64,000 nt of DNA from assembly GCA_973895155.1 (NCBI GenBank), contig OZ316894.1, forward strand, positions 6,410,234 to 6,474,233, read 5' to 3'. Of the stretch, positions 2,349-23,769 are shown in pieces. A program made the translations under genes and the position numbers. This DNA is from Marsupella aquatica. Taxonomy: Eukaryota; Plantae; Marchantiophyta. The notes beneath the pieces were generated by a model. It was not told where the DNA came from and searched no databases. It was given only the letters and a program-made list of their open reading frames with translations. Position 1 is the stretch's first letter; every line of letters begins with the position of its first letter.

Positions 2349-2369
2349 CACTAGTGGAAAATAGTGTCC

Positions 2370-3060: not shown

Positions 3061-3147
3061 GATGTATCTAAGAAGAGCTCATAGTTATATTCAAAATCAC
3101 ATACAATGAATCCACTTAAAACCTTAAACAAAGACATCACTTTGCGC

Positions 3148-3291: not shown

Positions 3292-3399
3292 GTCTTTATG
3301 ATGAAGTGATAGAAAGTACACATTTTTCACTCGCATGAGTGAAACAATGGTAACCAAAATATTCAAAAATTCTCTGTTCTACATGATCAGAGAAAATGT

Positions 3400-4065
3400 T
3401 CAACACTTTCGAAGAAACCTTGCATTCCACAATGTATTCATTCCTAACACATTCCGTAAGTGGAGTTGTTTCTCTTCTTTGTTGGGCATTGGCAATGCTG
3501 CATCACCACAATACACTGCCTTAACTAATACTAGTACCCAAGGACTCTCAATCATGACACAATGAAATTTATCCTCTCCTGGTAACCCTGTCACTTCACC
3601 TCTAGCAACAACTGTAGAGCGATCCACAACGCTTCGTACTTCTACAGCATCTCCTTTTGAAAACTGCCACACAAAATTGTTAGGACAAAATAGTATCTTG
3701 TAGTACTGATTTGGGCATATCATCAATTTAAGAACATAAGCCAACTGAAAACAAATTCACCTTTGCTGCTGGATTTGGGGAGAGAACTGGTACTCGTTCA
3801 CTAGGTGAGATAGTGATAGGGGTTGATTTCTTGAATCTCTTTGAAGGCCTAGGTGGTGTAGCCTCTTGTTCCTGAATTGCATTTGACACTATATGTTCAT
3901 CTGTGACAGCAATCTCATCACTCTCACCATTACCAATGCTGCTTTGTACAACGCAAGGTTCCTGCAGTGCTCCCAAATTTGCTTCTCCCATACTTGGCTT
4001 TGGCTTCTGCCTTGTTAAAGTATCTGATTTTTCTCGCTGTGATACAGGATTCTCCCCTGAAGAAG
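3400..4065 (-). CDS. TnpA-like gene of the inner CACTA, last two exons (Tnp1/En/Spm-like C-terminal domain)
   Basis: VVARGEV...KFHCVMI..WVLVLVKAV...AALPMP...L..VLG..TLW matches the TnpA C-terminal pattern. Separated from the upstream exons by the intron that holds the Gypsy elements. Confidence 0.75.
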
Positions 4066-4514
4066 CTACCACAAAAACCAAACAATGAATGCTTAGAAAA
4101 CTTCATTCTAAATTGAAAAATAAACTATTGCATATGTAACATGTTTAGAGTATAAGTGTGACGCCGCCGGTACGGCGGTTAATGAGTGATTCAGTCTAAC
4201 TGCGCTCGGCACGCGCGTTAGGTGGGTCTTAGGCCGCTATTATTAGCATAACGACAGTATTTAGGTAATCATTAGGAGTAGGACATCATTAGGTAATAAG
4301 GGGGACTTCAGGTTCGGGCTGGCGGCGGGTCGCTATTTGCACACCCGGGTTACGAGCGTGGAGGGGCCCCTCCCTCGGGTCCGTATAACGAACTTAAGGA
4401 AGCGGCCACTGACGCACGCTGACTCAGACCGGCGGAGTGGCCGGTACACCACAAGCGTGAGCGGTTCAACCTATGGGCGTCGAGGAGACGTCGGGGATCG
4501 ACAAGCCCTCAAAG

Positions 4515-4521
4515 TATAAAA
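4515..4521 (+). promoter_or_regulatory. TATA box in the LTR of element A, upstream of the LTR-encoded ORF
   Basis: TATAAAA followed by GGGGAG, a pyrimidine-rich leader and ATG at 4623. Confidence 0.55.
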
Positions 4522-5934
4522 GGGGAGCCAACCCTTTGTAGTGCACCAGTCCATCAGTCCGCGCGCCAGCTTTGACCCCAACTCTCTCGTTCTCTCTAGG
4601 TCGCCACTACTATCTCCTCTGAATGTCGCACACGATCCTCTCCAGCTCGGCCATTCGATTCTGGACGCAGTTCCTATCTACCGGAAGGCACTTGGCCGAT
4701 TCATTGAAACACGCCAACCCGCGCCGATACGAGATCGAACGCGAATACGAGAGAGCCATCCGCCTAGCAGGACGACACCACTACGTCCTTAACTTTGACT
4801 ACCCATCTCAGAGCGAGCTTTACCGACCAGCTGAGGTATCTGGGTACTTCTTCAACGGAGACAAATATATCGGGTTCTGGGAAGCATTGCTTCGGCTTCC
4901 GGACGAGGTCTTCAATATCCCGGGTACAATCGACCTGCAGCGACATCACTTCGACCACATCCCTGCCCAGGTTCGGGCGGTCATTAACGGTGAGTCCAGT
5001 ACCAACCGTTCGACAAGGGCGTCCGCACTCGCTTCGGAGAACTTCTACCAGCACCTACAGAGCTTCATGGGAACTCGGCCATCAACCAACATGACCAACT
5101 CAGCCGGACCCATACCCGTACCCGTACCCGTGCCCATGCAACCTCAGCTTCAGCTTCAGCCTCAGCCGCAGCCTAGCCAAACCCCCCCACCTATCACCCA
5201 GCCAGCACAAGTACGCTCCGTCATCAACGTTGTGGATCTTAGCGATGACGACGAGGCTACCCCACCCTTGACCAGGCGGCCCAGAGGAACAAGCGCTCGG
5301 GGGGCCGACACTATACCGTCCCCACCCCCTGCTCTGACCCCAGGAGCGGCCCCAGCAGACAACTTGGTGACCGTGGCCGCCCCGGGCCCGTTACCAACCG
5401 TAGTGGCACTCCCCAGGCCCGATCGGGAGGATGGGGAAGTATCACCTTCCCCGAGTCAGTCACGGGGAAAGAAGAGGAAGGAATCCGCCAGTGCATCCGG
5501 GTTATCGTTGGCCACGGTAGCCGTAGCCAAGGTAACGATGCATCGCATGGGGGAAAACGTTCACAGCAACATCCTCCATCCCAAGCATGTGGTGTACCTG
5601 AAGACTCAGGGATTTGAGCACCTCGCCTCTCTCCCCTGGAACACTTGCAGGTACTACGGGGAGGACATGACAGAATTCGTCAAGAATTATGACGACGTAC
5701 GTCAACAGACTCGGCTGCGGGGAAGGAATATGTCCCTCACAGAAGAACGGCTCAAGATGATCTTCGGGTTACCCGAAGGTGACCATCGAGTCGAATCACG
5801 GGCTCCCGGGGGCAAGGGGGCCAAGTACCAATCTTCAAGTTTTCCCTCAGAGGGATCAGTAGACAACGGGTTCGTGATGAGGACCTGCCTCATGCCCGAG
5901 ATAGCTGAGCGGCTGGAGTTCCAGAGGTACGCTC

Positions 5935-8900
5935 TGTGATGCCTAGACAGGAATCACTCGGCCGGTTAAGTGGGTAAAGCAGGAAGGCACCCTAGGAACA
6001 CCTTAGTATAGGGACAAAACAAGGAAAATATAAACAATTAGGGGCAACCATGGAACCCGGGCAGAGGCCGGAGGTAAGGCTGAGGGTGAAAACCCGATTA
6101 GGGTTAGGGCGCGTTAAGCGTTGGCGGCTAGGAAGGATCAACGGGAAGAAGGACCGGCAGAGGAGAGGGGTAAGGAGCGCTTGCAGGAGATGGTGGCTCA
6201 TTTGCGAGCACGAACTAGGCAGACGACTACGGGAGGCCAACTACTGTCAACTGCTTAGGCAAGCACTCGGGGAGAGAATAGATACCGACGATCGACCTAA
6301 GGAGGGTATGAGCAACGTCAATCAAGCGGCACATTTCTGGGGATGCCTGTTCGAACGGGCAACTGAGTACATCAAGACTTACAAGGACGAGGAGTCAGAA
6401 AGGGCAGCTCGAGAACGGCAGGAGCTCGCTCGATTGTGGGAGCTACAGAAGACGGCTTTCTTAGGAGGCGAACTCATCAAGGACGAGTTCCTGTGGACGC
6501 CTACTTCCAATCAACTCGACAATCTTCTGTTTTGCAAAGACAGCGTCGTCGGCATCCGAGAGGCCATCAAGAACTGCAATGACATACACTGGGAATTAAA
6601 GGGTAGCACGGAAAGGTGGACCCAGGCAACGGTGCTAGGAGAAACCTCCACGGCAGCAGAGATGAAGAGGAAGGGGGCCGTCAACGATGAAGCCACCCCG
6701 GCAAAAAGAACGAGGTCGGCGGCACCAAAGAGGCCAGCCGAGCAGCAGAGCAGGAGGCAGGGAGAAGCCGAAGAGGAGGAGGTCGATCCCATCAAGGCCA
6801 TTCCAACCAGGGATGACACCTGGAAGGGCTGGGCGGCAACCCTACCGGTGGAGGTGCAACTACATTTTGCACGGGAGGAGGATGCATGCTTTACGGCCAT
6901 GCAGACCAAGAAGTACCAAGGCTTCATGGCCGGATCCGGCTTGGAGGCCTTTGTAAGATTACCATGGCTGAAGCCGGAGGTACCGGAGTCAGACCTATTA
7001 GAATTCGTGGGGTCATGGGAACCCGAGACCAATTGCACGAGGATATATGGGAAGGATTTCTATCTTACTCCCAAGGTAATTGCCGAAGTGTTTGGCTTGC
7101 CGATAGGCAATAAGACCAAAGTTGATACCAGGAAGACCTTGCCTGACAAGGAGTTCCGGTCGTTCCCCGGGCCATCAACGAAGAATGGCTTCTTCCGGAA
7201 CACCTGCACCAACCCGCACATAGGAGAGATGATCGACTTCTTGCGGGTGACCATGCATTGTAACTTGCCGAGGGCAGAGATCGGCAAGGCACAGGTCTAT
7301 CTGGTAGAAAGGCCAGACCCAAGCCGGGACTACAACGGGTACCTCCTCAACCAATTGAAGAAGATCTTAAAGGAGGAGCAGCAGGTAATTGGCATGGGGA
7401 GCGTGTCGCGGCTTGGCTATCACATGCCGCTGTTGTGCCGGTATGCCAGAGGTCAGACTTTTGCCCCGGTACTTCCCCTGCAGGTAAGGGCACCCGAGGA
7501 AGCTCCAACGCCAAGGCCGTTGGCTGAGAAGCCTCAACCACCTGTTAGTCCTACGATCGAGCAAGTGTTTAGGCCCAGGAAGGAAGACTTGCCGATGCAG
7601 CAACCAGGCATGCAGAGTCTGCTGAAACTACTGGAGAAAGAAAAGAAATCAGCATCGGCAACAACAACGGCAACGGCAACAATGCAGGACACTACTACAG
7701 AGGTAGGCCTACACCGGCTCACAAGAGAAAACCCCTTTGCTGGAGACAAGGAGAGAATCAGGCCGGAATCCAAGCCAGGTGTTCGAATGTACGTGGGAAC
7801 CTCAAGCTCCGAATCTGAGGCAGAATTGCCTGAAGCTCCTACCGACGAAGAGGAGAGGGAGAAGCCGGACGTCCAAGAGGTAGAGGAGGCAGTGGAGGAC
7901 TGCAGCCATGATAATTCCGGCTATGGGTCAGACCATCACGTTCCAGGAGTAAGGACCTGTGGCCGGTTTGTCCCCACACTTCCAAGGGTAGTGCGAGGGG
8001 ACCCCAACCAGCAAAGTAGCCCTGAGTCTCCCCCACCAGATGTTGCTCCCCCGAGCTTCGACGGCATAAAACAGACGGTGCAGGAATTTCAGGAGCGAAT
8101 CAAGCAGGAGGAAGAGGCCGCCCTGGCTAAGGAAAAGGATTTACCAGGAGGAGATTGGCCGGAGGACATCAGGCGGCTAGCCGAAAAAGGAAGCAAACCT
8201 CTAGCCACGATTGAAGAGATCCGCAGGACGGCTTGGGAGCAAAGGCCACGATGGGCGATGCCGATCACTTCTACTTACTCCACCTACGCTAAGAATAGAG
8301 CCATGGAGTATGGTGAGATGTGTGGGGAACTTGCGCTCGGCATCTTTGGAGAGGAGTTGGAGGTAGGACCCTTTTTCCATAGGGAGCAGTTGGAGAAGCA
8401 CCAATTAGAAGAAGCGGTGGCTTTAGAGAGAAGCAAGAAGGACGAGGTCATTCGGCGGCTTAGGAGGATGGAAGCCGAGATTGAAGATCTAAGGGCGGCC
8501 AAGAAAGCCCAAGATGAACTGCGGATTAAACGACATGAGCTGAACATCATGCAGGGGCAGTTGGACACCGCGCAGGCTGATAATCAGAATATCAAGGATA
8601 AACTAACTCAGACGCAGGGAGAGTTGGCCAACACGATCAAAGAGAGGGAGAAGTGGAAGCAAGAGCTGAAGAATACAGAGGAGGCCCACATAACAGCCAA
8701 CAGCCGGGCCATGGCGGAGACCCAAAGAAAGGAATGGGCGTTGAAAGGGGAGCTCGAGAAAATCCGCGGAGCCCTTGAGCAAAAGGAGGTCGAGTTAGGG
8801 AAATCCTATCAAGGGATTATGGCGCTGCAGCAGGAGCTTGCGTCCCTGACGGCCAGCTTCAAGACCGACCTAAGGGAGAAGGACGAGATGCTCGAACAGA

Positions 8901-9339
8901 CTTACGCCAAGATGAACCAGATGGAGTCTGTCATCATTGCAGAGCTCGACAAGGAGCTAAGAGCAACCCAGGAGGAGAGGGCTACCTTGAAGAAGGAATT
9001 GGAGGAAGCCCACAGGGAGCAGGAGGAGGCCAAAAACGAGCTGGAGGGGGCACGTAAGGACCTGGATGAAACCCAAGAGGAGTTGGAGGAAATCACGAGG
9101 AAGATGGAGAACCTACAGCGGCGGGCCGACAACCAAACAGAGCGGCTGAAGAAACAAGCCGCAGTATTTAAATGCTTAGCTGCAGCAGGTCCATCTCCCA
9201 TTGGGACAAACCAGTTACCAGGGGTGGTAATTGCCGAAGGACAAGCCGCGCCAACTGCACCAGTGCCGGAAGTAAGTGGGAAGGGGAAGGGACCAGCTAC
9301 CGAGCCACCAACGAAGAAGAAGCGGAAACCTTCAGGGTC
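5935..9339 (+). repeat. Inverted copy of the first 3405 bp of the element-B LTR (pairs with 16765-20169)
   Basis: Colinear reverse-complement match of about 99% by eye; the ORF translations differ at about a dozen residues. Confidence 0.97.
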
Positions 9340-9391
9340 CCCACTTAATTGTGAAGCGTCCTCGCGAACAACTTCATCTTCGTCCATATAG
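6050..9391 (+). CDS. LTR-encoded protein of element B, inverted copy (1113 aa, open frame, chimeric C-terminus)
   Basis: Uninterrupted ORF with a PMD-like core (IYGKDFYLTPKVIAEVFGLPIG) and a long coiled coil. The last ~16 residues come from the antisense strand of the integrase end. Confidence 0.75.
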   Translation: MEPGQRPEVRLRVKTRLGLGRVKRWRLGRINGKKDRQRRGVRSACRRWWLICEHELGRRLREANYCQLLRQALGERIDTDDRPKEGMSNVNQAAHFWGCLFERATEYIKTYKDEESERAARERQELARLWELQKTAFLGGELIKDEFLWTPTSNQLDNLLFCKDSVVGIREAIKNCNDIHWELKGSTERWTQATVLGETSTAAEMKRKGAVNDEATPAKRTRSAAPKRPAEQQSRRQGEAEEEEVDPIKAIPTRDDTWKGWAATLPVEVQLHFAREEDACFTAMQTKKYQGFMAGSGLEAFVRLPWLKPEVPESDLLEFVGSWEPETNCTRIYGKDFYLTPKVIAEVFGLPIGNKTKVDTRKTLPDKEFRSFPGPSTKNGFFRNTCTNPHIGEMIDFLRVTMHCNLPRAEIGKAQVYLVERPDPSRDYNGYLLNQLKKILKEEQQVIGMGSVSRLGYHMPLLCRYARGQTFAPVLPLQVRAPEEAPTPRPLAEKPQPPVSPTIEQVFRPRKEDLPMQQPGMQSLLKLLEKEKKSASATTTATATMQDTTTEVGLHRLTRENPFAGDKERIRPESKPGVRMYVGTSSSESEAELPEAPTDEEEREKPDVQEVEEAVEDCSHDNSGYGSDHHVPGVRTCGRFVPTLPRVVRGDPNQQSSPESPPPDVAPPSFDGIKQTVQEFQERIKQEEEAALAKEKDLPGGDWPEDIRRLAEKGSKPLATIEEIRRTAWEQRPRWAMPITSTYSTYAKNRAMEYGEMCGELALGIFGEELEVGPFFHREQLEKHQLEEAVALERSKKDEVIRRLRRMEAEIEDLRAAKKAQDELRIKRHELNIMQGQLDTAQADNQNIKDKLTQTQGELANTIKEREKWKQELKNTEEAHITANSRAMAETQRKEWALKGELEKIRGALEQKEVELGKSYQGIMALQQELASLTASFKTDLREKDEMLEQTYAKMNQMESVIIAELDKELRATQEERATLKKELEEAHREQEEAKNELEGARKDLDETQEELEEITRKMENLQRRADNQTERLKKQAAVFKCLAAAGPSPIGTNQLPGVVIAEGQAAPTAPVPEVSGKGKGPATEPPTKKKRKPSGSPLNCEASSRTTSSSSI

Positions 9392-12300
9392 TATTTCTTG
9401 AGGCGGTCATAATGGATGCGAACTGGATATACCTCTCCCGTAATGTTGGCCAATTGTACGGAGCCATTGGGGAACATCATGGTTACTCTAAAGGGTCCTA
9501 ACCAGCGAGTGTAAAGCTTTCCTGGAAACCTACTATACCTACTGTCATAAAGTAGCACAAGATCACCGGTATGAATACTAACTACTTTTAACCTTTTATC
9601 ATACTGCTGCTTCATGATATTCTGTCTATATTCTACTCTCTCGGCTGAAATCATTCTCGCTTCCTCTAAAGCTTCTAACCTATATTCTCGCTCCTTTAGG
9701 CTCTCCTCCGCTGAGGCTCTTTCCTCAATTGTAACTTGAAATGTCGGTATCTCAAGTTGCATGGGTACCAGGGCTTCTTGTCCAAAGGTTAAGAAGAAGG
9801 GTGTATGACCGGTAGTGGATTTATAGGCAAGATTGTAAGCAAAAACAGCAGCAAACAATTTATCATCCCAATCGAGTTTGTTCTGAGCTACTGTCTTGTT
9901 CAATATCTTTCCTATGATTCCGTTTGCTCATTCTGTCAACCCGTTTGCCTTTGGATGGTAGGGAGTAGTAGGCCTATGTTTAACTAAATACTGCTCATTT
10001 AAACGACTAATTATATCATTCAAAAAATGGGTTCCTCTATCACTAACTAATTCTAGGGGTGCTCCATACCTGGTGAAGATCTGCTCATACATGAATCTAG
10101 CCATCGTAATTGCATCATCCTTCGTTGTTGGTCTGGCCTCTATTCATTTAGTTGCATAATCCGTAGCCAGGATTATATACTTGTTCCGTCGAGGGTGGGT
10201 CAGTGGTTTCAGAGGTCCAATGTAATCAATACCCCACTTCTCGAATGGTGCCAGAGGTAGAATAGGGTGCAGTGGATGCCTGGTGGACGCCCTTGGTCCT
10301 CCCGCTCGTTGACAAGGATCGCATTGTTTGATAAACTGATAGACATCTTTGTGCAAGGTGGGCCACCAGTAACCGGCATTTAATATCTTCTTAGACGTGG
10401 TTACTGGGGCAAAATGTCCTCCGGCCTCCTCTCCATGCATGGCCCGTAGGACTCGTTTTACCTCTCTCTTTTCCAAACATCTTTGAATCGTGCCGTTGAT
10501 TCCATGCTTGTGCAGTATGCCTTTAATGCACTGATACCGTCTGACCTTCCGCACAAAGACTGCGGCTTGCTCTCGGCTTAATCCTGGCTGTAATCTGGAA
10601 GTGCTGAGAAATTGTAAAATCTCAGGGTACCATGTACCAGCTATTTCCACAACGAATAGCTCCTCGTCGGGGAATCGATCATCAATGCAATCCGTGGCAG
10701 GTTTACCTGTGATCCTTGAAAAGAAGTCGGCATTGGCATGTAACTTTCCCGGCTTGATCCTCAGCTCATAGTCAAACTCCTGTAATAGCAAAATCCATCT
10801 TGCTACTCTGCCTGTAAGGTCCGGCTTATTGACTAGGTACTTCAAACTTTCATGATCAGTATGAAAGATTACCTTGTACCCTAGTAAATAATGCCTAAAC
10901 TTTTTACAAGAATAAATGACTCCTAATGCTTCTCTTTCCGTGGTAGAGTAGTTCCGTTCGGCATCGGCAAGCTGACGGCTTGCGAAGTATATGGGATGGT
11001 CCCTTCCTTTCTCATCCAACTGACTTAGTACTGAGCCAATACAGAAGCCCGAGACATCTACAAAAACATGAAAATCTTTGTTCCAGTCCGGTGCTATCAT
11101 GACTGGGGCCTCTACTAACATCTGCTTCAATTCTACCACCGCTGTGACTCGTTCGGGTGTGGGTTCGAAGTCTGCTCCTGCCTTGAGCATATTGGTTAAT
11201 GGTAAAGCCAGCTTGGCAAAATCCTTGATGAACCGGCGATAGTAACCAATGCATCCCAAGAAGGATCTTACATCCTTTATGTTCTTAGGTTGCATGATAT
11301 CTAGCCATACTGCTAGCTTACCTTTGTCAATCTCAATGCCCTTCCTTGATACCTTGTGACCTAGTAGCACCCCCTCGGTTACTGCAAAAAAACATTTATC
11401 TGGGTGTAACTTGAGACCCACCTCTCTACATCTCATGAAGGTTTTCCTGAGGTATTTAGCATGTTTCGATGCCTTCCCGAATACTGCAAAGTCATCAATG
11501 AAGATTTCCATGAACTTTCTCAAGTAATCATGAAAAATGTTCACCATTAATCGTTGGAACATAGCTGGTGCGTTGCAGAGTCCAAACGGCATACGATTGA
11601 AGACATAGATCCCCCATTCCGTGATGAAGGCCGTCTTGATTTGGTCTTCCTGCCGAATCCTGATTTGGTTATAACCAGAGTATCCATCCATGAATGAATA
11701 TAGTTCATGACTGGCTACCATGTCTAGTACCATATCAGTAAACGGTAAAGGAAAATGGTCTTTTAATGTTGCTTCATTCAGCTTCCTGTAATCCTGACAA
11801 ACCCGGATCTTGGGTTTACCATCGGGTCCAGCTTTCTTGGGAACTATCACAATTGGAGACACCCAGTCTGAATGCAGGACTGGAGTGATGAATCCAGCTT
11901 CCACTAGTTTGTCGATTTCTGTTTTGACCAGCAGGGAATACTTCGGGTTCATCCTTTGAATTGGTTGTCGAAATGATTTGGCTCCTAACATGAGATCAAT
12001 TCGATGTTCCCCTAGTGTTGGATCTACTCTCTTTAGATCTTGGTGACTCCATGCAAACACATCCTGAAATTCAATCAATAAGTCACTGATCTCTTTCTCG
12101 AGCTCAGGTGCTAGGTTTCTCCCTAAGTTCAGTTCTCTTCCCTCTCCTAAGTCGAGCTTCCGATATTGCCATGCTTGGATCATATTAATCTGCTTCTTCA
12201 AATTCGGGTCCAGTTCGGCTTCCAGTCTCTCTAATCTCATACCTCCATAAACTAGGATCTCGGCTGGACTAGCCGAGTCGGTCCCTTCCTTGGTGTCCAT

Positions 12301-12588
12301 AGATTGTCCCCTTACCGGTCTATTCGGTTTTGAATTAGTGGTCGGCTCCCCTTCCTGCCTTGGCTCTGGATCGTGTCTGTCCATCTCATCCACTTCTTGC
12401 TCCTGAGAGTTAGGCCGTTGTGCTCTCTCGGCTTCTAATAGGGCCTCAATTTGTTCTGCCCTCGTAATCGGCTTGTATGCCGATCCCTTGGTATTTAATT
12501 CCTTGCCGATGATCGATGGCGTTGTGGACCCCGTCGGCTCTGCCACAACGCCTGCAGAAAATCCACTGTCCCTGCTACTGCTCCCCAC
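9340..12588 (-). pseudogene. pol: Element B pol: reverse transcriptase, RNase H, integrase
   Basis: RT: SPIVIVPKK, DYRKLN, DGYSGYNQI, MPFGLCNAP, FIDD. RH: DVSG, EREAL, TDHESL. INT: H..GGH/CDPC zinc finger, WGIDYIGP, SDRGTHF, GPF motif. In-frame stops at 10144 and 9928. Confidence 0.95.
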
Positions 12589-15488
12589 TTAGCCGTTTCA
12601 TCCAATTGGTCTACATCCTTTACTTCCTCCGGAATTGCAGCTAAAAAGGTGGATTCTATTGTAAAGCAGTCCTCGACCTCTTCGTCTTCTTCTTCCAAGT
12701 CACCTTCCATTGGTTCTTGCCATAATCCGCTGGGGGGTACCTCTGGTCCAAAGACACCTTCTTCGGTTAGGTTAGTGAGGCATTCTAACCAACGTACTTC
12801 ATCGGCTGACTCCAGTCCACTATCGTACCCATCTACTTCCCTTATGCTTTTCCTACGGTCATCCTTAGTGTCCCAGGATACCGTGATAGAGGGGGTCCCG
12901 AAAGTGAACTGCTTTTTACCCCAATCTTCTATTACCTCGGCTAGGTACAGCCATGGCCTACCAATCAATAGCCGGAATGACGTAGGATTTACCGGCTTCA
13001 TTACTACATAGTTAATGCTAAAGAAGATACCTCCTATCTCTGTCTTGATGCCGGTTAACACTCCCGTCGGAATGACCTGATATCCATTGGCCATGTTCAA
13101 CACTCTTCCAGTCATCTCCGGTGTTAGACCCCACCCTTTTGCTGTTGAATCAATCATAATACATACCCCTGATCCTCCATCGATGGGTACCCGTAGTAAT
13201 AATTCTCCTTGAATCATTAATGGTAATGCTGGGGCTCCTTGATCTTCTTCTATCATTAGTACGTCGGATCTGGTTGCTACCTTGGGTAATCTCGGCTTGC
13301 CGAGAATAGCCTTCCTTAATTGCTTCCGGAAGTACGGGCTATTTTTCAATAGTTGACCTACTGTTGCCGAGACTCTAGATTCTAGTACATCTTTAGCCAG
13401 GTCATAGGGAACAATCGGCTTCTCTTCTGGTGGTGTTTCCGTCTTGGATTCGGCCAGTTTTGCCACGCTAGTCTCCACAGCTGTTGGGTCTTCCGAAGCA
13501 AACAATGCTTTTGCTCGTTTTACATCCTTGGCAATGGCTTCGGTATTCTCCAGGGTTTCTAATTCTCTTAGTTGTTCCTTAACACTAGCCGTAACAGAGG
13601 GGTAAAACAACTTAGGATGATCTCGATTGAAGTCGCTATCTTGTGAAGGATTGGTTTCACTAGTGGGCTCATGGCTTACCTGTATTGCCGGAGCCCTCCC
13701 TTCTCCTTCTGTTGATGTTGACGAAGAGTCGATCCTTTCCTCCGTAACCTTCCCTTTATTTTTGGCCAGCCCATCCCACCTTTCCTTCCTTCTGGTAGAT
13801 CGAGTAGAGACCCGGTAGCAATCATGATCTAAATCCTCCTCTGAGAAGGTTGATAGGGCTTCGGCCTCATCATCAGATGGTACGAACTCTGCCTCGGCAT
13901 CCTCTTGCCATCCTAGTTCGATGTGGTTGATTTGAACTCCTCCGGGGGTAGTACCTGGCGGTAAGATCTTGATCGGCAAAAGCTTATGATTTGCGGCCAG
14001 GCCTGCCAACCAAGTAGGACATTGCCCTAGCATATGACCTTCCTGTCGGCATCCCATACATAGCTGAGCTGGTTGTCCATCACCCTGTTTGCGTGCATTC
14101 GGGCATTCTCTAGCAAAATGGCCAGGTTGACCACAATTATAGCACGCCGCAAATCTTTGCACATTCGGCCTAGGAGGTACTGACGGGTTCTGAATAATCC
14201 GAGGATACATCTCTCCTGGATTGTTCCTTAACCCTGACCACAGAGATGCAGGTCTGTTGGATAGGTCTCGTGCTCCAATCTCACTGATGCCGAAAACACT
14301 ATCAGCGGCATCTCCTAAAAAGTACTCTACTTCTCCCTGACATGGTCTGATCTCGGCCACATGCCGAACATGATTAGTATTAAGCTTAGGACACGCATCT
14401 TTATGGTGTCCGGTTTTATAACATAAGGCACACCATACAGAGCTATCCTCCTGTACTACCTTCTTCTTTGGTTTTACCTCTGCAATGATAGCCTTAAGTT
14501 GCTCGGTAAGGGCTACGATGTTATCTGGTGGCTTAGCCTCCATCTTGACTTTCGTCTTCCCTCTCCTTCTGCCCTTCCTTTTCCTAGTTTTTTCTTCTTC
14601 AGAACTAGAAGATGACTCACTCTTGCTACTCCCACTATCCGAGCTTGACTTATCACTTCTAGACTTCTTGGGATGTTTCTTCTTCTTATCTTTTTTCTTA
14701 TGGGGTGATCCCTCCTCTGATGAGGAACTCTCAGACTTAAGCTGTTTCTTCCGGCTTGTGATATCTGCATTAATGTATAATTGAATATCCTTAATTGCTT
14801 CGGCTAAAGTCTCCGGGTTCTCCTTCCTAATTGCAAAACTCATCTTCTGTGGCAAAGCATTCACCAACCATTGAAGTTGCATACCTTCAGATGCATTGGT
14901 CTTTGTACGTCTTACCAGTTTCTGAAAGCGTTGCAAGAACTTCCTGAAGGATTTGTTCTCCTTGAACCGAAGTTGTCCCAACTTCAGCACTGCTAGTTCT
15001 GAAGTTCCAATGGGTCGAAACTCCTTAACAAAGAGTGTTTTGAAGATATCCCAGATGGCTTGATCTTCCACATCTAATGCTCTGTACCAAGGCCTAGCCT
15101 CACCCTTGAACAGGCCGGGAAGAATCTGCATCTTGATGGCCGATTCTCCATTTGCTGCAGCGGTTCCCTCGAAATCATCCAACCATTCGTCCGGATCCTC
15201 ATCTCCTCTCCCATGAAATGCCTTGTAATGTATGCGCGACCGCTAGCTCAATCTGGTCCCTGGCCTCTCGTCTGGCCGTGCCTCTGGTTCCCCCATGTCG
15301 GTTGGAGACTCACTTCTCCTTACCGACTCTTCTTCTGGTATGTCTTCTTCGACGCCACTTCCAGTTTCGGAGCTACCAGCTCTTTCTGCCCCTCTCAGTC
15401 GCTGTGTATCATGCCACCCGGCGAGCTGCTGCAGTCGAGCTCTCTCCCGTTGAATCACTCTTTCTTCCCTCGACATAAGGTCAGTCAT
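12495..15488 (-). pseudogene. gag: Element B gag-protease
   Basis: DPDEWLDDFE gag N-terminal domain, three CCHC knuckles (CALCYKTGHHKDAC, CYNCGQPGHFAREC, CMGCRQEGHMLGQC), protease IDGGSG and LIGRPWL. In-frame stop at 15243; in a different frame from pol. Confidence 0.92.
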
Positions 15489-15532
15489 TACCTACGCTTC
15501 CGTTCTAACTTCATATCTCACGGCTTAAGAAA

Positions 15533-15553
15533 TGCCCCCTCCATCTAGCGCCA
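15533..15553 (-). promoter_or_regulatory. Primer-binding site of element B
   Basis: TGGCGCTAGATGGAGGGGGCA just after the LTR end ..CACCACA; identical to the PBS of element A. Confidence 0.85.
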
Positions 15554-15557
15554 AAAA

Positions 15558-18500
15558 TGTGGTGCGTCCCATGGCTCCCTAAACCCAAGAAACCCCCCAG
15601 CTCAAGCCGATTCCCGCAGGTTTCGTGCTTGGCGAGGCCGTTTCCGCGGCTTAGCGGCATGGGACGCTGCTAACCTTCTACTACTACTATTAACATTTTA
15701 CACACATATACTGGACAGATCCTTCATCGGGTCATGAGATACATAGCCGGCCTAATATAGGCCTTCCCCTGTCTTCCCCTGTCTTCCCCTCCGTCTTGTT
15801 AGGTATGTTTGGATTCCGCTGCCGGAATGATCCCCAATAGGCTTGGTTAAGCCGTTAAGACCTCTCTCAGCTCGACACATCCAACTCTCACTCCCCTGCT
15901 TACTTTCCTTCCTTCTGTTGATGTGGGCACTCTTCACACAAGTTAATGCGACACACAAATAGCAAAATGACTCATTCTGACTGAGTCATACCATGCACTT
16001 GCCATACAAACAGTACATCTCATACACAAGTTCTGCGAACTAAGCCGTGAGGCCAACTCTATTCAGCTCTTAGGCATGAGGAAACATGAATATACACAAG
16101 GGTCACTGTATGACTAACCGAGAGCTTCTCGTACTACTTGATCCCAGCCCGGCTGGTGCAAACTAAAAACTTGCCATAGAAGAGGCCCTGAGCTCCCCGC
16201 TGCCCAGGTACTTATCCTGGTAGTGGATCCGCCATTCTTTGCATCGTAAGCCTAATCTACTTAACAGTAATCTACTTGCCCGAATCTACCTATGTACAGC
16301 AAGGCAGGAGCACAAGTGTTGCTCCTACCAGTGGGACCGCAATCCCACTAAGCTAAGTGTCAGGGCCGCTCCTGGTTCTGATCCTAATCCTAAACGTGGA
16401 GATCCGCGCCCGCCCTGCCCACTCACGCCTCCTCCCTCCACGTCCACCCTCCCTAAAAGGAACGGCGCCCTTGCACCGTCACGACACCGGTGGTGGATCC
16501 TTAATGGACGCCCCCAACGCTTCCTCCTCAGCCATTGCCGTAGGTTCATTCTCTGACAGATTACCTGCCCTTGACTGAGTCAACTCTCCATCGGCCTGAC
16601 TGGGTCCACCTTCGGCTTCAGCCTCGACACCGGCCTCGGCAATACCCACGGCTTCGGCCTCCCCTTCCCCTAGGGTAGTTGGATCCTTAGCCGTGACCCT
16701 GTCTGGGGTCGGTGCTGGGTCTACCTCCTTGATCACCACGGCCTGTGAAGTCGTATTACTCCTTGACCCTGAAGGTTTCCGCTTCTTCTTCGTTGGTGGC
16801 TCGGCAGCTGGTCCCTTCCCCTTCCCACTTACTTCCGGCACTGGTGCAGTTGGCGCGGCTTGTCCTTCGGCAATTACCACCCCTGGTAACTGGTTTGTCC
16901 CAACGGGAGATGGACCTGCTGCAGCTAAGCATTTAAATACTGCGGCTTGTTTCTTCAGCCGCTCTGTTTGGTTGTCGGCCCGCCGCTGTAGGTTCTCCAT
17001 CTTCCTCGTGATTTCCTCCAACTCCTCTTGGGTTTCATCCAGGTCCTTACGTGCCCCCTCCAGCTCGTTTTTGGCCTCCTCCTGCTCCCTGTGGGCTTCC
17101 TCCAATTCCTTCTTCAAGGTAGCCCTCTCCTCCTGGGTTGCTCTTAGCTCCTTGTCGAGCTCTGCAATGATGACAGACTCCATCTGGTTCATCTTGGCGT
17201 AAGTCTGTTCGAGCATCTCGTCCTTCTCCCTTAGGTCGGCCTTGAAGCTGGCCGTCAGGGACGCAAGCTCCTGCTGCAGCGCCATAATCCCTTGATAGGA
17301 TTTCCCTAACTCGACCTCCTTCTGCTCAAGGGCTCCGCGGATTTTCTCGAGCTCCCCTTTCAACGCCCATTCCTTTCTTTGGGTCTCCGCCATGGCCCGG
17401 CTGTTGGCTGTTATGTGGGCCTCCTCTGTATTCTTCAGCTCTTGCTTCCACTTCTCCCTCTCTTTGATCGTGTCGGCCAACTCTCCCTGCGTCTGAGTTA
17501 GTTTATCCTTGATATTCTGATTATCAGCCTGCGCGGTGTCCAACTGCCCCTGCATGATGTTCAGCTCATGTCGTTTAATCCGCAGTTCATCTTGGGCTTT
17601 CTTGGCCGCCCTTAGATCTTCAATCTCGGCTTCCATCCTCCTAAGCCGCCGAATGACCTCGTCCTTCTTGCTTCTCTCTAAAGCCACCGCTTCTTCTAAT
17701 TGGTGCTTCTCCAACTGCTCCCTATGGAAAAAGGGTCCTACCTCCAACTCCTCTCCAAAGATGCCGAGCGCAAGTTCCCCACACATCTCACCATACTCCA
17801 TGGCTCTATTCTTAGCGTAGGTGGAGTAAGTAGAAGTGATCGGCATCGCCCATCGTGGCCTCTGCTCCCAAGCCGTCCTGCGGATCTCTTCAATCGTGGC
17901 TAGAGGTTTGCTTCCTTTTTCGGCTAGCCGCCTGATGTCCTCCGGCCAATCTCCTCCTGGTAAATCCTTTTCCTTAGCCAGGGCGGCCTCTTCCTCCTGC
18001 TTGATTCGCTCCTGAAATTCCTGCACCGTCTGTTTTATGCCGTCGAAGCTCGGGGGAGCAACATCTGGTGGGGGAGACTCAGGGCTACTCTGCTGGTTGG
18101 GGTCCCCTCGCACTACCCTTGGAAGTGTGGGGACAAACCGGCCACAGGTCCTTACTCCTGGAACGTGATGGTCCGACCCATAGCCGGAATTATCATGGCT
18201 GCAGTCCTCCACTGCCTCCTCTACCTCTTGGACGTCCGGCTTCTCCCTCTCCTCTTCGTCGGTAGGAGCTTCAGGCAATTCTGCCTCAGATTCGGAGCTT
18301 GAGGTTCCCACGTACATTCGAACACCTGCCTTGGATTCCGGCCTGATTCTCTCCTTGTCTCTAGCAAAGGGGTTTTCTCTTGTGAGCCGGTGTAGGCCTA
18401 CCTCTGTAGTAGTGTCCTGCATTGTTGCCATTGCCGTTGTTGTTGCCGATGCCGATTTCTTTTCTTTCTCCAGTAGTTTCAGCAGACTCTGCATGCCTGG

Positions 18501-20169
18501 TTGCTGCATCGGCAAGTCTTCCTTCCTGGGCCTAAACACCTGCTCGATCGTAGGACTAACAGGTGGTTGAGGCTTCTCAGCCAACGGCCTTGGCGTTGGA
18601 GCTTCCTCGGGTGCCCTTACCTGCAGGGGAAGTACCGGGGCAAAAGTCTGACCTCTGGCATACCGGCACAACAGCGGCATGTGATAGCCAAGCCGCGACA
18701 CGCTCCCCATGCCGATTACCTGCTGCTCCTCCTTTAAGATCTTCTTCAATTGGTTGAGGAGGTACCCGTTGTAGTCCCGGCTTGGGTCTGGCCTTTCTGC
18801 CAGATAGACCTGTGCCTTGCCGATCTCTGCCCTCGGCAAGTTACAATGCATGGTCACCCGCAAGAAGTCGATCATCTCTCCTATGTGCGGGTTGGTGCAG
18901 GTGTTCTGGAAGAAGCCATTCTTCGTTGATGGCCCGGGGAACGACCGGAACTCCTTGTCAGGCAAGGTCTTCCTGGTATCAACTTTGGTCTTATTGCCTA
19001 TCGGCAAGCCAAACACTTCGGCAATTACCTTGGGAGTAAGATAGAAATCCTTCCCATATATCCTCGTGCAATTGGTCTCGGGTTCCCATGACCCCACGAA
19101 TTCTAATAGGTCTGACTCCGGTACCTCCGGCTTCAGCCATGGTAATCTTACAAAGGCCTCCAAGCCGGATCCGGCCATGAAGCCTTGGTACTTCTTGGTC
19201 TGCATGGCCGTAAAGCATGCATCCTCCTCCCGTGCAAAATGTAGTTGCACCTCCACCGGTAGGGTTGCCGCCCAGCCCTTCCAGGTGTCATCCCTGGTTG
19301 GAATGGCCTTGATGGGATCGACCTCCTCCTCTTCGGCTTCTCCCTGCCTCCTGCTCTGCTGCTCGGCTGGCCTCTTTGGTGCCGCCGACCTCGTTCTTTT
19401 TGCCGGGGTGGCTTCATCGTTGACGGCCCCCTTCCTCTTCATCTCTGCTGCCGTGGAGGTTTCTCCTAGCACCGTTGCCTGGGTCCACCTTTCCGTGCTA
19501 CCCTTTAATTCCTAGTGTATGTCGTTGCAGTTCTTGATGGCCTCTCGGATGCCGACGACGCTGTCTTTGCAAAACAGAAGATCGTCGAGTTGATTGGAAG
19601 TAGGCGTCCACAGGAACTCGTCCTTGATGAGTTCGCCTCCTAAGAAAGCCGTCTTCTGCAGCTCCCACAATCGAGCGAGCTCCTGCCGTTCTCGAGCTGC
19701 CCTTTCTGACTCCTCGTCCTCGTAAGTCTTGATGTACTCAGTTGCCCGTTCGAACAGGCATCCCCAGAAATGTGCCGCTTGATTGACGTTGCTCATACCC
19801 TCCTTAGGTCGATCGTCGGTATCTATTCTCTCCCCGAGTGCTTGCCTAAGCAGCTGACAGTAGTTGGCCTCCCATAGTCGTCTGCCTAGTTCGTGCTCGC
19901 AAATGAGCCACCATCTCCTGCAAGCGCTCCTTACCCCTCTCCTCTGCCGGTCCTTCTTCCCGTTGATCCTTCCTAGCCGCCGATGCTTAACGCGCCCTAA
20001 CCCTAATCGGGTTTTCACCCTCAGCCTTACCTCCGGCCTCTGCCCGGGTTCCATGGTTGCCCCTAATTGTTTATATTTTCCTTGTTTTGTCCCTATACTA
20101 AGGTGTTCCTAGGGTGCCTTCCTGCTTTACCCACTTAACCGGCCGAGTGATTCCTGTCTAGGCATCACA
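15558..20169 (-). repeat. 5' LTR of element B (4612 bp)
   Basis: Runs from the TSD-flanked terminus TGTGATGC to GCACCACA (7/8 inverted match), immediately before the PBS. Confidence 0.88.
16479..20054 (-). pseudogene. LTR-encoded ORF of element B, full-length copy (1191 codons, one premature stop)
   Basis: ORFs 19512-20054 and 16479-19472 are in the same frame. TAG at 19512-19514 corresponds to TGG at 6590-6592 in the other copy. Confidence 0.85.
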
Positions 20170-22416
20170 CGCTCTCCACATGATGGAACCCCGGGGGGAG
20201 ATCTCCGCCGCCCAGGTCATCCAGGTCGAGAACTATCGACCTAGGAAATGGGCGTCGTACTTCGCTAAGAAATTCCATGAAGAGATGGAGCGGCGAAGGA
20301 AGACGCTGTACATTGGCGGGAAGGCGTATTTGGCTAGCCACATCGAAATCATTCTTGAGTGGTACGCCCGGTTTGATCGACGAACCCTTCCCCGCATCAA
20401 CGTTACAAAGCTGGTCCCAGCTAGGTGGGTTTTTCCGGCATTGGAGAGACGGCCCCAACCCGAGGCCTGAAGTCCAGTGGACACGCCAGCTTCACCCACC
20501 CCACCTCCACAAATAGCTGTAATCGTAACCGAGGAGGCGCCGGAGGGGTCGGTCGTCGCAACCGTTGCTGCGACCCAACTAGCCGGGCTAAGTACAGAAG
20601 TTGGTACGGCAGAGGTCTTACCCGAACCCGGGTCTCCCAAGGACCCGCCGGTGGCAATTCTGGAGAACCGGACATCGCTGCAGGAGGACACTCCAGCCCC
20701 TTCCAACGTTATGTCCCCAGGGCTGGACGTCACTGCCCCGGCCCCTGCGCGTGTTGATGTCTGCCCGTGCCCAAATCCGGACAGGCACAACTTGGACCAC
20801 CCGAAACTCTTCGTACAGGGTACGTTTCTGAACGGGCTTCTGGGAGATTTCTCTCATCAAATTGCCCGGGATACCGGGGAGTTCATGCCCCGGAAGGTAG
20901 CCTGTTTCTTCAATCAGGAGTTGGTTGCCGCCGTAAAGGCAGGTCGGGCCCAGTCGGAGGCCCTTCAGAGGATAGAGCGGTACCGGGTGGAGTCCGTGTA
21001 CCTAAAGAACGAAGTGGCGGCTCAAGAGGCTGAGCTTCTGTAACTACGACCCAAGGTTGCAGCCGCCGATGAGTTGTTAGCAAAGGCGTATGCTCTTACC
21101 GCCCTAGCCGAACAGGCCAAAGCTGGGAACGAGGCCGAGATTACACGACTCCGGAACCAGATTGACAGTTTGAAGAAACAAGCTGTCACCTGGCAGAAAG
21201 ACCTGGAGGAGGCCGAGGAGCGAGCCCAGCGGGACGCGACGGAGATAGCCACGCTGCAGGCCGAGATGGCGCGGCTCCAAACCGAGGCCGAGAAGCAGGA
21301 CCAGCTGGCGAGTAAACTGACGAGCGACGCCCAGCAGCTGGAGGAGGCATGTCAGGAGGCAGCAGAGGAGACGGACGCGGCGAGGCGAGAGAACGAATCT
21401 CTGCTAGACCAGGTCCAGCTCCTCAAAGCAGACAATGATAGGCTTCGAAGGCAGCGGGATGGCCGTTCCCATTCAGGCGGCTCTGGCAAGCGTGCCAGGC
21501 ATTAGCGGCGGAGTAGGAATAGATTAGGATTAGGATTGGCTTAGTTAGGCTCTTGGGACAGGCACCTGCCTTAGGTACAGCAGCGCTGCCCTGCTGTCCA
21601 GCCTGCGTAGAGTAGGATCTTCTAATAAGACACAGCCGTTTTCCGGCCTGACTGTCAGCTTAGTTAGGACCTTGGTCAGCGAATCTTCGGCGGGAGGACA
21701 CCCTGTTCCTCGGCTCTTAGTATTTAGTGCACCCCTCGGTAGAGGCAAGGGGGGGTTTTTAGTTTCAGAGTCGGACATCCGCGGGACATGCGGGGAGTCC
21801 CGACCTCTGGGAATGACAAAGTACCAATGGGAGGGGGTAGGACTAAGCTCGCCGGGCGAGTGCGGAGCCGGGCTCCGTTGTAGTGTGCACCCTTGGCCTT
21901 GAACCTGTGCATTCCAGGGCTGTCGTGTCAACTAAGTGTACGCATATGTTCCCTTTGTAGTAAAATCCTTTCCCATCATTTTTCCTTCATGTAAATCGAG
22001 ATTGTATGCATGTGTGCGCATATGTGTGTGGGTTTCTCGTATATGGGTGGCAGCGCCGGGCCGAACGCACTACCCGAGACGTGCACAGGGTGCAGCCTGC
22101 GGGTAAGTGGTTGCGAGCACGGGTTGAGGACCTGTATCATCGAATCCGGATCGAAGGCGGATAGCACGAAGGCTTAGAAGCCCTTAAGCCGGGGTCGATC
22201 CTGCTATCGACTAAGGTACGTTCCGGCGGCGGAACACAAACCATACCTAGGAGGTGTCTGTATTTAGCAGTATGCGCACTTAGCGCTAGTTTACGAGAAT
22301 AAGGTGCATTACGTGCTTCCCTTCCTGCCCGAACCCTCAGATTTACGAGGGATGTGCCCGTCTAAGCTGAAGTCTGAGTTAAGGCCGAAGCCTACGACGT
22401 GACATAGCCTTTGTTT

Positions 22417-22437
22417 TGGCGCTAGATGGAGGGGGCA
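22417..22437 (+). promoter_or_regulatory. Primer-binding site of element A
   Basis: TGGCGCTAGATGGAGGGGGCA, 12 bp after the LTR end. Confidence 0.85.
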
Positions 22438-22527
22438 CTCTACATATCGTAGAGGGGAGACATGTGCGTATTCACCTAGGCAGGATACATCAGGACGTAG
22501 TACTAACCATTGCATTTATATGAGTAA

Positions 22528-23769
22528 ATGCCCGTCACTCGTTCTCAAGCAGCTTACTTGAGGAGATTGACCAGCGAACGAGAAAGTGCAACCACAACAA
22601 GCTCCGACTCGTCGGGCTCGGAGGACTCGCAATCGTCCCGACGTATGAACATACCCCCGGGATCTTCGGGGTCCGGTTCGACCGGCCCTGCTGCGGTTCC
22701 ACCACCACCACCACCACCACCACCACCTATGGCAGCCGCTCCACCGGTGGCCCGCGCTGCTCAGGCGCCTCCACAAATATCGCAACGATCGCGATTTCAT
22801 TATCGACCTTTCAAAGGGCGTCATGGGGATGATCCGGATGAATGGTTGGATGAGTTTGAAGCCACTGCTAAAGCTAATGGGGAAGACGCCATTAAGCTAA
22901 CCGTCCTCCCGGGAGTAATGCGGGGAGAAGCTCGTCCATGGTATAACTCGTTACCACCCGGGACTACCTGGGCACAATTCCAAGCTGCATTGTTGCAGGA
23001 GTTTCGTGCCATTGGATCAGAATAGCGTTCTCTATTAAAGATTGGCCAGCTTCGCATGGGAAAAAAAGAGTCCCTGCGGAAGTTCATTCAGAAGTTTCAG
23101 AAACTTGCGGCCAAGATCCGGCCCAGGCCAGGAGACGCGCTCCAGCTTACATGGTTCCTTCATGGTTTGCCCACGAATATGCAATTCTGGGTACGCCAGA
23201 ATAATCCAATTTCAATGCAGGCGGCCATAGCGTGCGCCGAAACTTACCGGGAGTCCACCTATAACTCCCGGCGGAGCCAGCGAGCACGCCGCATGAAGGG
23301 TAAGTACGAAACCTTCAGTGACAGTGACTCCGAATTGGACGACGAGAGGAAGAAGAAACGCAAGAAGAAGAAGAAACATCGTTCGACCTCGTCCAGCTCC
23401 GAGACGGAATCCAGTTTGGATTCAGCTTCAAGCATCGGATCCTCTACCTCCAGTTCATCAGGAAGTGACTTGGAGAGCGAAAGCCGGAGAAAAAAGAAGA
23501 AGAGACGAGTGAAGAAGGAGGGGAAGATTAAACCCCAGGCGCGAAGAACGATACCAGATCCAAAGGCTGCCGAAGCAGACAAGCTGAACGAAATCACGGA
23601 TCGACTCAAAGCACTGTCAGTACATCTTGCGGAGAAGCCGGTGGAAAAGAAGAAGCCATCTGAGATTCGAGCCCATGCGTGGTGTTCAAAGTGCTTCCAA
23701 TCCGGCCATGTGGTGCAGGAATGCCCAAGGTGGAAGAACCGAGTTCACCAAGTAGAGCTGGATAACTGA
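22528..23769 (+). pseudogene. gag: Element A gag, truncated after the first zinc knuckle
   Basis: MPVTRSQ start, DDPDEWLDEFE, CSKCFQSGHVVQEC; in-frame TAG at 23023; homologous to element B gag. Confidence 0.9.

Follow-up and report, generated by a model that had tools for sequence, protein, structure and literature searches.

The DNA analysed here (the window, 64,000 nucleotides in length) raises the question of whether a plant Gypsy retrotransposon can carry a large gene inside its long terminal repeat (LTR) and, if so, what the encoded protein does. A first-pass annotation had placed a sense open reading frame (ORF) between the TG terminus and the primer-binding site (PBS) of two Gypsy elements, A and B, with LTRs of 4 to 4.6 kb. 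Both the placement and the size were borne out, with LTRs of 4008 nt in A and 4612 nt in B. The two elements are real; they needed to be redrawn as nested, with B lying within the ORF of A.

A gene within the LTRs of two nested elements

The termini of element A are TG at 4157 and CA at 22404, and its LTR (4157-5934 plus 20175-22404, plus strand) is split by the insertion. The 5' part (4157..5934) contains the TG start, at which a contig joint ends, a TATA box (4515-4521) and the ORF start at 4623; the 3' part (20175..22404) contains the remaining ORF to 21505, 899 nt of non-coding sequence and the CA end. The resulting ORF (4623-5934 plus 20175-21505) has approx. 880 codons, of which those at 4623..5934 specify an N-terminal domain and the first part of a VANC/PMD-like core. 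Both of its internal stops are private to the window copy, being missing from nearly all of the depth in all four public runs. The PBS (22417..22434, plus strand) lies 12 nt beyond the LTR end and is followed by gag (22528..23769, plus strand; one stop), after which the element is truncated (about 23770). No second pol was found within the window, and owing to this truncation the window has no 3' LTR of A. The status of this region as an LTR is thus suggested by its ends, TATA box and PBS and by analogy with B.

Element B (minus strand) interrupts the LTR ORF of A and is flanked by a 5-bp target site duplication (TSD; CGCTC at 5930..5934 and its right-hand copy at 20170..20174, plus strand). 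The joint expected for A without B (5928-20169) is present in all four public runs. An arrangement of two head-to-head B elements was ruled out, as there is only a single TSD pair. The 5' LTR of B (TG...CA; 15558..20169, minus strand), at whose inner end (15558) several contig joints terminate, is followed by a PBS (15536..15553, minus strand) identical to that of A, which we take to be of the tRNA-Asn type. The gag-protease frame (12495..15242, minus strand) overlaps pol by 94 nt in the -1 frame, and pol (9340..12588, minus strand; reverse transcriptase, RNase H and integrase, with two internal stops) extends to the polypurine tract (PPT; 9338..9350, minus strand). The gag proteins of A and B are 45% identical over 167 aa.

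The gene order of B (gag-PR-RT-RH-INT), together with its TG...CA LTR, PBS, PPT and a TSD of the 4-6 bp class, is that of Ty3/Gypsy elements. The window copy of B lacks the usual pair of direct LTRs; other copies of the family are direct at the PPT. The additional RNase H that defines the Tat clade (Neumann 2019) gave no Pfam match in the gag-pro, pre-RT, pol and post-integrase segments of B, and the integrase, which terminates at the PPT, has no chromodomain.

The LTRs of A and B share one order, i.e., TATA box (about nt 95 of the LTR in B and nt 359 in A), sense ORF, non-coding tail of 0.9 kb and then the shared PBS, with the ORF taking up 65-75% of the 4-4.6 kb. In B, the frame is open from 20054 to 16479 (1191 codons) with one internal stop (19512-19514); from its likely start it runs for 1105 codons (16479..19796, minus strand). 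Public-run contigs at the PPT of B continue into LTR-start sequence, as in normal B copies, with loose ends at 9338 in 3 contigs of X3, 7 of X1 and 8 of X4, and the depth of near-identical unitigs was higher for the ORF than for the integrase, both in X4 (5681 versus 2875 and 3034) and in X5 (7909 and 7234 versus 4225 and 4521); the ratios range from 1.6 to 2.0, unitig depth not being equal to copy number. The PPT contigs and the approx. two-fold depth together indicate that the ORF is present in both LTRs of B. The proposed duplication therefore holds for B and, for A, would follow by extension. A depth ratio of roughly 2:1 gives no indication of numerous solo LTRs. Both families are abundant. 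The suggestion that each LTR is a promoter-plus-gene cassette stands at the level of sequence, with a TATA box 5' of the ORF in both LTRs; the ORF would be transcribed from this box, and a poly(A) site presumably lies within the 0.9-kb tail. As pol stops at the PPT and the internal spacer is gone, the ORF is likely to have originated as an Athila/Ogre-type accessory ORF that crossed the PPT or PBS into the LTR.

An inverted arm in place of the 3' LTR of B

The second copy of the B ORF in the window belongs to a partial inverted LTR rather than to a normal 3' LTR. LTR nucleotides 1-3405 stand in inverted orientation (5935..9339, plus strand) where the 3' LTR belongs, joined to the PPT with a 2-nt overlap, and differ from the 5' LTR at 25 positions. 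This arm carries a TATA box (6029-6034) and an ORF frame free of stops over 1096 codons, with the likely start at 6308. Transitions account for 24 of the 25 differences, and decay in both copies is mostly G:C to A:T, as in silenced elements. With 10 synonymous and 15 non-synonymous changes, the differences between the arms agree with neutral decay when transitions are weighted (P = 0.14-0.33), and are uninformative on selection.

The inverted end is likely the product of aberrant reverse transcription with a template switch at the PPT. Such a switch would yield a molecule with two LTR-start ends, whose integration would have produced the usual 5-bp TSD. That the inverted arm is an artefact of assembly, or was rearranged once B had inserted, is an appreciable but clearly less probable explanation. 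No contig spans 9339/9340 among the 32 listed of several thousand pieces from four runs, which may represent another individual. The LTR termini also form imperfect inverted repeats, so that a flip and later deletion are conceivable, and G:C to A:T mutations are unevenly divided between the arms (19 versus 5; P = 0.007). Neither an artefact nor a rearrangement, however, sits well with an intact TSD at both flanks, with 25 differences between the arms, with locus-private variants common to both (e.g. 7513/18591), or with a joint that lies, in a 6.2-kb internal region, no more than about 5 nt from where the PPT meets the LTR. A DIRS-like inverted-repeat structure of the whole family was ruled out, as normal copies carry a direct LTR past the PPT. 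In the literature covered, largely open-access main texts, we found no other case of a 3' LTR inverted and attached at the PPT; the copy suggests that failed reverse transcription of a 4.6-kb LTR at the PPT can still end in integration.

The LTR-encoded protein and its predicted fold

In 1000 base-shuffles of the B ORF the mean number of stops was 50 and the minimum 28, as compared to the single stop observed, which indicates that the frame is not due to chance. The LTRs of A and B have no DNA similarity (best match, 29 nt), but their proteins share a core (blastp, 30% identity over 142 aa; E = 3e-11) and a C-terminal coiled coil, as had been noticed from the sequence. Protein similarity of this kind without DNA similarity, together with the copy-private stops of A, speaks for coding constraint. 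The rest of the proteins had been considered divergent; this does not hold for the N-terminal domain, as a profile of four N-termini, B excluded, matches residues 87-192 of B with 18.4 bits (best of 500 shuffles, 3.3). This homology makes codon 87 the likely start, so that of the ORF lengths first given, approx. 880 codons stands for A and 1191 codons for the frame of B, the B protein itself probably having 1105 aa. B consists of the N-terminal domain, the core, a low-complexity linker, the coiled coil and a basic NLS-like motif, and this layout is common to A and to the named relatives of both, which are liverwort (Calypogeia) proteins deposited as unnamed protein products.

In the family variation, of which 40 of 72 variant rows were listed, only 9 of 18 variants in the ORF tail were synonymous (P between 0.009 and 0.13, according to how transitions are weighted), as compared to 17 of 22 in the integrase. 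An env-like role was ruled out, since neither A nor B has a transmembrane segment; no hydrophobic stretch was found in either (best 19-residue Kyte-Doolittle values, 1.18 and 0.82, respectively). A word-based protein search found no relatives of the B core among 707 candidates, a search with alignment A1 gave no match among proteins of 1379-3935 aa, the only sizes covered, and no relatives turned up in metagenome loci scanned with the B core or with P0026.

Two models of the core (6782..7549, plus strand) were compared with 48,161 chains. For model 1, VANC21-DNA (9lnk) was the sole chain with Z of at least 2 (Z = 8.7, rmsd 4.1, 213 aligned residues) and for model 2 the sole chain with Z of at least 5 (Z = 7.5, rmsd 4.2, 177 aligned; next chain, 2.2), values to be read against the fact that below Z = 8, or 13 if the proteins are helical, a match may reflect a common arrangement. 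As the query and most alignment rows are shared, the two models are not independent. The match is a middling one, the cores superposing, on predicted models, at 8% sequence identity. Foldseek ranked VANC21-DNA 4th (model 1) and 1st (model 2), with no match at E <= 0.001 for either (top TM-scores 0.42 and 0.49; E = 2.1 and 0.38). ESM Atlas pointed to PF20167 (0.90) and PF03078 (0.88) for B; for a Calypogeia relative it gave DUF1985 (0.86) and PMD (0.85), scores under 0.9 being leads only. None of the 21 alignment members, the window proteins or four Calypogeia proteins matched PMD (PF10536), DUF1985 (PF09331), PF20167 or PF03078 in Pfam. A PDB sequence search with the core profile gave one match, a designed tandem-repeat protein, which was rejected because no stretch passed alone. 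The earlier idea of a PMD-like factor therefore survives at fold level, through the VANC21 match and weak ESM Atlas leads, and not at the level of Pfam families. VANC and MAIN/PMD are described as structural homologues, with coiled-coil dimerisation predicted for VANC21 (PMC13547354).

Candidate function and known systems

We consider the LTR ORFs of both Gypsy families to encode, with a probability of about 50%, a DNA-binding anti-silencing factor with a VANC/PMD fold and a coiled coil. Given its predicted fold, the protein likely binds the DNA of its own element in the nucleus and counters host silencing: the core would bind DNA, the coiled coil would dimerise the protein, and the target would be motifs in the non-coding LTR. 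VANC binds short motifs and relieves silencing (PMC5735166). A shared fold alone shows no function, and the host PMD proteins MAIN and MAIL1 were described as acting in silencing (PMC5418596), which counts against deriving anti-silencing from the fold. The mostly G:C to A:T decay of both copies, as seen in silenced elements, likewise counts against an anti-silencing role. No tandem motif arrays of the VANC type were found in the non-coding LTR parts of A and B; per-region k-mer tests there were not significant, and TRF reported only two short repeats plus 10-bp units. Strand-biased TTAGG (17 observed versus 4.7 expected; family-wise P = 0.008, for a word chosen post hoc) is a weak candidate for the target motif.

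Tethering to chromatin or DNA, by which the protein would steer integration (e.g. into heterochromatin or other copies) without lifting silencing, appears unlikely. It would draw on the same match to VANC21, on an integrase that ends at the PPT without a chromodomain, and on the position of B in the LTR of A, with many contig joints placing B ends inside B sequence; but the sole solved relative is an anti-silencing factor, and nested insertions are common where genomes are repeat-rich. Slightly less probable still is an action on element RNA or particles, i.e., nuclear export of unspliced RNA, packaging or suppression of silencing, in which the coiled coil would serve as scaffold. The long coiled coil and basic tail would suit such a role, for which CERV of the C. 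elegans element Cer1 is reportedly a precedent, and accessory ORFs of sunflower Tekay are described as similar to dsRNA-binding proteins (PMC11728184). Against it, the only structural match of the core is a DNA-bound protein, and no RNA-binding Pfam family was found in the window proteins or the 21 alignment members. Least probable of all, we consider, is that the ORF is a passenger under weak constraint, or serves some purpose other than that of VANC/PMD, with the match reflecting a common helical arrangement. The non-significant Foldseek and Pfam results, the weak synonymous excess in the ORF tail and the fast divergence of A and B all fit a passenger, yet the four-part architecture is retained in A, B and the Calypogeia proteins despite the lack of DNA similarity, VANC21 stands far above all other chains, and the stops are private to single copies.

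On the anti-silencing reading, each element copy would likely bring its own tool against host silencing. More tentatively, and rather doubtful as a whole, the LTR of one lineage of bryophyte Gypsy elements may be a self-contained anti-silencing cassette with promoter, gene for a DNA-binding VANC/PMD-fold protein, poly(A) site and its own target motifs, duplicated as a unit and able to survive as a solo LTR. If so, VANC would have its equivalent among retrotransposons, and transposons would have carried the VANC/PMD fold long before angiosperms arose, which would make it a possible source of MAIN/MAIL and VANC. The order in which Gypsy-borne and host PMD appeared is a long-open question (PMC5418596).

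VANC21, from the Mutator-like DNA transposon VANDAL21 of Arabidopsis (DUF1985; PDB 9lnk/9lnj), resembles the proteins of A and B in its predicted core fold, in being transposon-encoded, in a conserved domain between variable regions and in a coiled coil, itself a prediction for VANC21 (PMC13547354). The ORFs of A and B differ in being intron-less and inside the LTR of an LTR retrotransposon, in the low identity and lack of tandem target arrays noted above, and in having relatives in a liverwort, as compared to VANC, which is described as dicot-specific (PMC13547354).

The extra ORFs of the OTA Gypsy group (PMD, PF10536, in Ogre; ORF-1, PF03078/PF20167, in Athila; Transposase_28 in Retand) are likewise large, sense accessory ORFs in elements of the non-chromovirus type with very long LTRs, up to about 5 kb (PMC6317226), and ESM Atlas leads, without a Pfam match, connect them to B and a Calypogeia relative. 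Theirs are internal, 5' or 3' of gag-pol (PMC6317226, PMC7264820), whereas in A and B a TATA box precedes an ORF that is part of the LTR and, at least in B, duplicated, and pol of B stops at the PPT. Accessory ORFs inside Ogre, Athila and Retand elements are thus already known; for placement within a plant LTR we found no report. The literature covered, largely open-access main texts, yielded no plant Gypsy ORF inside an LTR (cases may be present among the elements tabulated in PMC6317226) and no VANC-fold retrotransposon ORF in bryophytes. Liverwort Tat Z2, Tat-like without the additional RNase H (PMC13468544), agrees with B in this respect and with A and B in coming from the plant group of their named relatives. 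ORF0 of Retrosat2, RIRE3 and RIRE8 is also a fast-evolving extra ORF in elements with LTRs over 3 kb, and is described as located upstream of gag-pol (PMC3485330).

The function of plant Gypsy extra ORFs is a long-open question (PMC7264820, PMC6317226), and a high-copy family with a VANC21-like predicted fold would allow a direct test. Placement in the LTR gives each insertion two copies of the gene, one of which is kept by any solo LTR. The retroviral genes sag of MMTV and nef also lie inside the LTR and are hence duplicated; their proteins and hosts are unrelated to those of A and B. For annotation, the unnamed protein products of Calypogeia may be genes of retrotransposon LTRs.

Nested elements and the reading frames in their LTRs

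The interval consists of two Gypsy elements, one nested inside the other. Element A (plus strand) opens with TG at 4157, and CA at 22404 closes its LTR-like segment; the PBS lies 12 nt past this end, gag starts at 22528, and the element is truncated near 23770. No second pol was found within the window. Element B (minus strand) sits within A's reading frame, flanked by a 5-bp target-site duplication (TSD; 5930-5934 and 20170-20174), and contigs representing its empty site, i.e., joining 5928 to 20169, were present in four of four public sequencing runs; once B is removed, the A LTR measures 4008 nt. B comprises a 4612-nt LTR (20169-15558), the PBS, gag-protease (15242-12495), pol (12588-9340; RT, RNase H and integrase, with two internal stops) and the PPT, all on the minus strand. 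A Pfam search did not find an additional RNase H in B, as is also the case for the liverwort Tat Z2 group in the available text of PMC13468544, a likeness of domain content and not of a tree. The PBS regions of A and B are identical over 24 nt and their gag proteins share 45% identity over 167 aa, while the longest DNA match between the two LTRs is 29 nt at most.

In B, the RT frame shares 94 nt with the gag-protease frame (12495-12588, minus strand; -1 frame), and this overlap contains the heptamer GGATTTT, a slippery site in plant RNA viruses; a programmed frameshift between protease and RT is possible. The CpG observed/expected ratio is 0.87-0.95 in A (4157-5934 and 20175-23769), 0.62-0.68 in B and 0.36-0.46 in the flanks.

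The first-pass annotation had proposed that both LTRs encode large, related proteins in sense orientation, and these LTR ORFs are real. The A ORF spans LTR nt 467 to 3109 (approx. 880 codons, as proposed) and the B open frame spans LTR nt 116 to 3691 (1191 codons, likewise as proposed); base shuffling of the B frame gave at least 28 stops in all 1000 trials. The two internal stops of A are absent from nearly all sequencing depth in four of four runs, and the single internal stop of the B ORF is missing in the second LTR arm of this copy, which indicates that these breaks are private decay. The claimed common core was recovered (30% identity over 142 aa, E = 3e-11), as was the coiled coil in both proteins, the layout being N-domain, core, low-complexity linker, coiled coil and basic tail; neither protein has a transmembrane segment. 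An N-terminal profile built from four sequences, with B left out, matched B over residues 87-192 with 18.4 bits, against at most 3.3 bits in 500 shuffles. As this match begins exactly at residue 87, codon 87 is the likely start of the B protein, which would then comprise 1105 aa, fewer than its open frame allows. With this start, the ORF of each LTR is preceded by a TATA box (LTR nt 95 in B and 359 in A).

Duplication of the ORF and the inverted end of B

Since the B copy in the window has an abnormal 3' LTR, ORF duplication was judged from public runs (X1, X3, X4 and X5). In contigs leaving the PPT at 9338, LTR-start sequence resumes after four bases (3 contigs in X3, 7 in X1 and 8 in X4); normal B copies thus carry a direct 3' LTR immediately at the PPT, where pol ends without a 3' spacer, and the B ORF is present in both LTRs. 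Among unitigs with 0-1 differences, depth, a rough measure, was 5681 (X4) and 7909 and 7234 (X5) for the ORF as compared to 2875 and 3034 (X4) and 4225 and 4521 (X5) for integrase. The resulting ratio of 1.6-2.0 fits two ORF copies per B element and few solo LTRs. The expected duplication is thereby observed for B and presumed for A; in A, depth is several-fold higher in the LTR bins than in the gag bins. Among the 40 of 72 variants listed for the B family, 17 of 22 in integrase were synonymous, a clear sign of constraint, and 9 of 18 in the ORF tail (not the core; P = 0.009-0.13), where constraint is weak.

The segment at 5935-9339, which stands in place of the B 3' LTR, corresponds to B LTR nt 1-3405 in reverse-complement orientation (99.27% identity; 25 differences, 24 of them transitions) and is joined at the PPT with a 2-nt overlap. 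This inverted end is a trait of the window copy and not of the B family. Both arms share variants absent from other copies (7513/18591) and the TSD is intact, which argues that one molecule with two LTR-start ends integrated; the simplest account is that reverse transcription probably switched templates at the PPT, producing the inverted end. A flip and deletion after insertion, or misassembly, is less likely, though no contig among those listed bridges the 9339/9340 junction. Of the 24 transitions between 5935-9339 and 16765-20169, 19 have the A/T state in the inverted arm (P = 0.007), and 15 of these 19 are G-to-A changes on the sense strand of the LTR (P = 0.02); a single-stranded intermediate or differing methylation could account for this unevenness.

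Predicted fold and possible function of the LTR-encoded protein

The protein had also been suggested to be a PMD-like factor. Pfam yielded nothing beyond coiled-coil noise for the LTR ORF proteins and their relatives. We aligned two AlphaFold2 models of the B core (pLDDT 72.6 and 78.3) to 48,161 solved chains each, and the structural comparison did favor the suggestion. For model 1, the crystal structure of VANC21, the anti-silencing protein of VANDAL21, with its target DNA was the sole chain at Z ≥ 2 (Z = 8.7, rmsd 4.1, 213 aligned, 8% identity); for model 2, VANC21 was the sole chain at Z ≥ 5 (Z = 7.5, rmsd 4.2, 177 aligned; runner-up 2.2). Foldseek ranked VANC21 fourth (model 1: TM 0.42, E = 2.1) and first (model 2: TM 0.49, E = 0.38). 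ESM Atlas assigned PF20167 (0.90) and Athila ORF-1 (0.88) to B, and DUF1985 (0.86) and PMD (0.85) to one Calypogeia relative, as leads only. Judging from the models, the B core quite probably has a VANC/PMD fold. According to the available text of the sources, VANC is a DUF1985 protein that binds to short motifs and relieves silencing (PMC5735166); it is structurally homologous to MAIN/PMD, and dimerization through a coiled coil is predicted for VANC21 (PMC13547354; bioRxiv 10.1101/2024.09.27.615353); Athila ORF1 is related to PF20167 (PMC11728184); and angiosperm PMD-A clades are Gypsy-encoded, their ancestry being called fully open (PMC5418596).

We give a probability of about 0.5 to the reading that transcription of the ORF from the LTR promoter would yield a nuclear, dimeric VANC/PMD-fold protein, which would bind the element's non-coding DNA and counter silencing. 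The ORF may be part of U3, in which case genomic RNA would come from a second promoter further downstream, or else of R/U5, which would then be very long. Against an anti-silencing role, the structural scores are middling, the non-coding LTR parts of A and B contain no VANC-type tandem target arrays, and both copies show ordinary C/G decay. TTAGG, a word picked post hoc, is enriched on the sense strand when A and B are pooled (17 observed vs. 4.7 expected; family-wise P = 0.008); the excess is not significant in A alone or B alone. The protein might instead tether integration, which seems unlikely, or, slightly less likely, serve RNA export or packaging. Least likely of all, given VANC21 as sole chain at these thresholds for both models, is that the ORF is a weakly constrained passenger or that the core matches by chance, a reading with which the weak tail constraint and the Foldseek E values would agree.

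The element type and the class of accessory protein are already known. Genes within the LTR are known from retroviruses. In OTA Gypsy elements, LTRs reach approx. 5 kb and additional ORFs encode PMD, Transposase_28 or Athila ORF-1 domains (available text of PMC6317226); reviews assign such ORFs (PMC7264820, in part), like ORF0 of Retrosat2 (PMC3485330, in part), to the internal region, whereas those of A and B are inside the LTR. Whether LTR retrotransposons encode VANC-like modulators has been posed as an open question (PMC12844716, available text), and the accessible part of PMC12885004 lists liverwort Gypsy lineages without detail of this kind. In openly available main texts we found no account of this arrangement; new, as far as searched, are the location of the ORF within a duplicated LTR, where a TATA box of its own precedes it, the fold resembling that of VANC21, and the occurrence in a bryophyte.

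Relatives and other features of the window

Among 1.84 billion representatives searched, 19 matched at E ≤ 0.001, mostly on the core; Calypogeia fissa was named for 4 of the 10 relatives looked up, and a core profile search retrieved 9 proteins among 7990 candidates, all from Calypogeia. By these matches, the host of A and B is probably a liverwort or some other plant without seeds. Relatives from C. fissa (P0015, P0016 and P0032-P0038) are deposited as "unnamed protein product" and may be retrotransposon genes.

Elsewhere, a CACTA-type element (25737-31683, minus strand) carries Transposase_21, DUF4218 and DUF4216 as well as an upstream ORF with NSD-like PHD fingers. In a second CACTA-type region (35003-45958, plus strand), a Transposase_21 fragment is followed by an orphan ORF, an E/K-rich repeat ORF, an Ulp1 protease and three tandem NIF/HAD phosphatase-like ORFs. 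Repeats include an array of approx. 535-590 bp units with 60-90% similarity (60100-64000), a tandem array with 29 copies of a 12-bp unit (2692-3040) and a 72-bp duplication (3148-3291).
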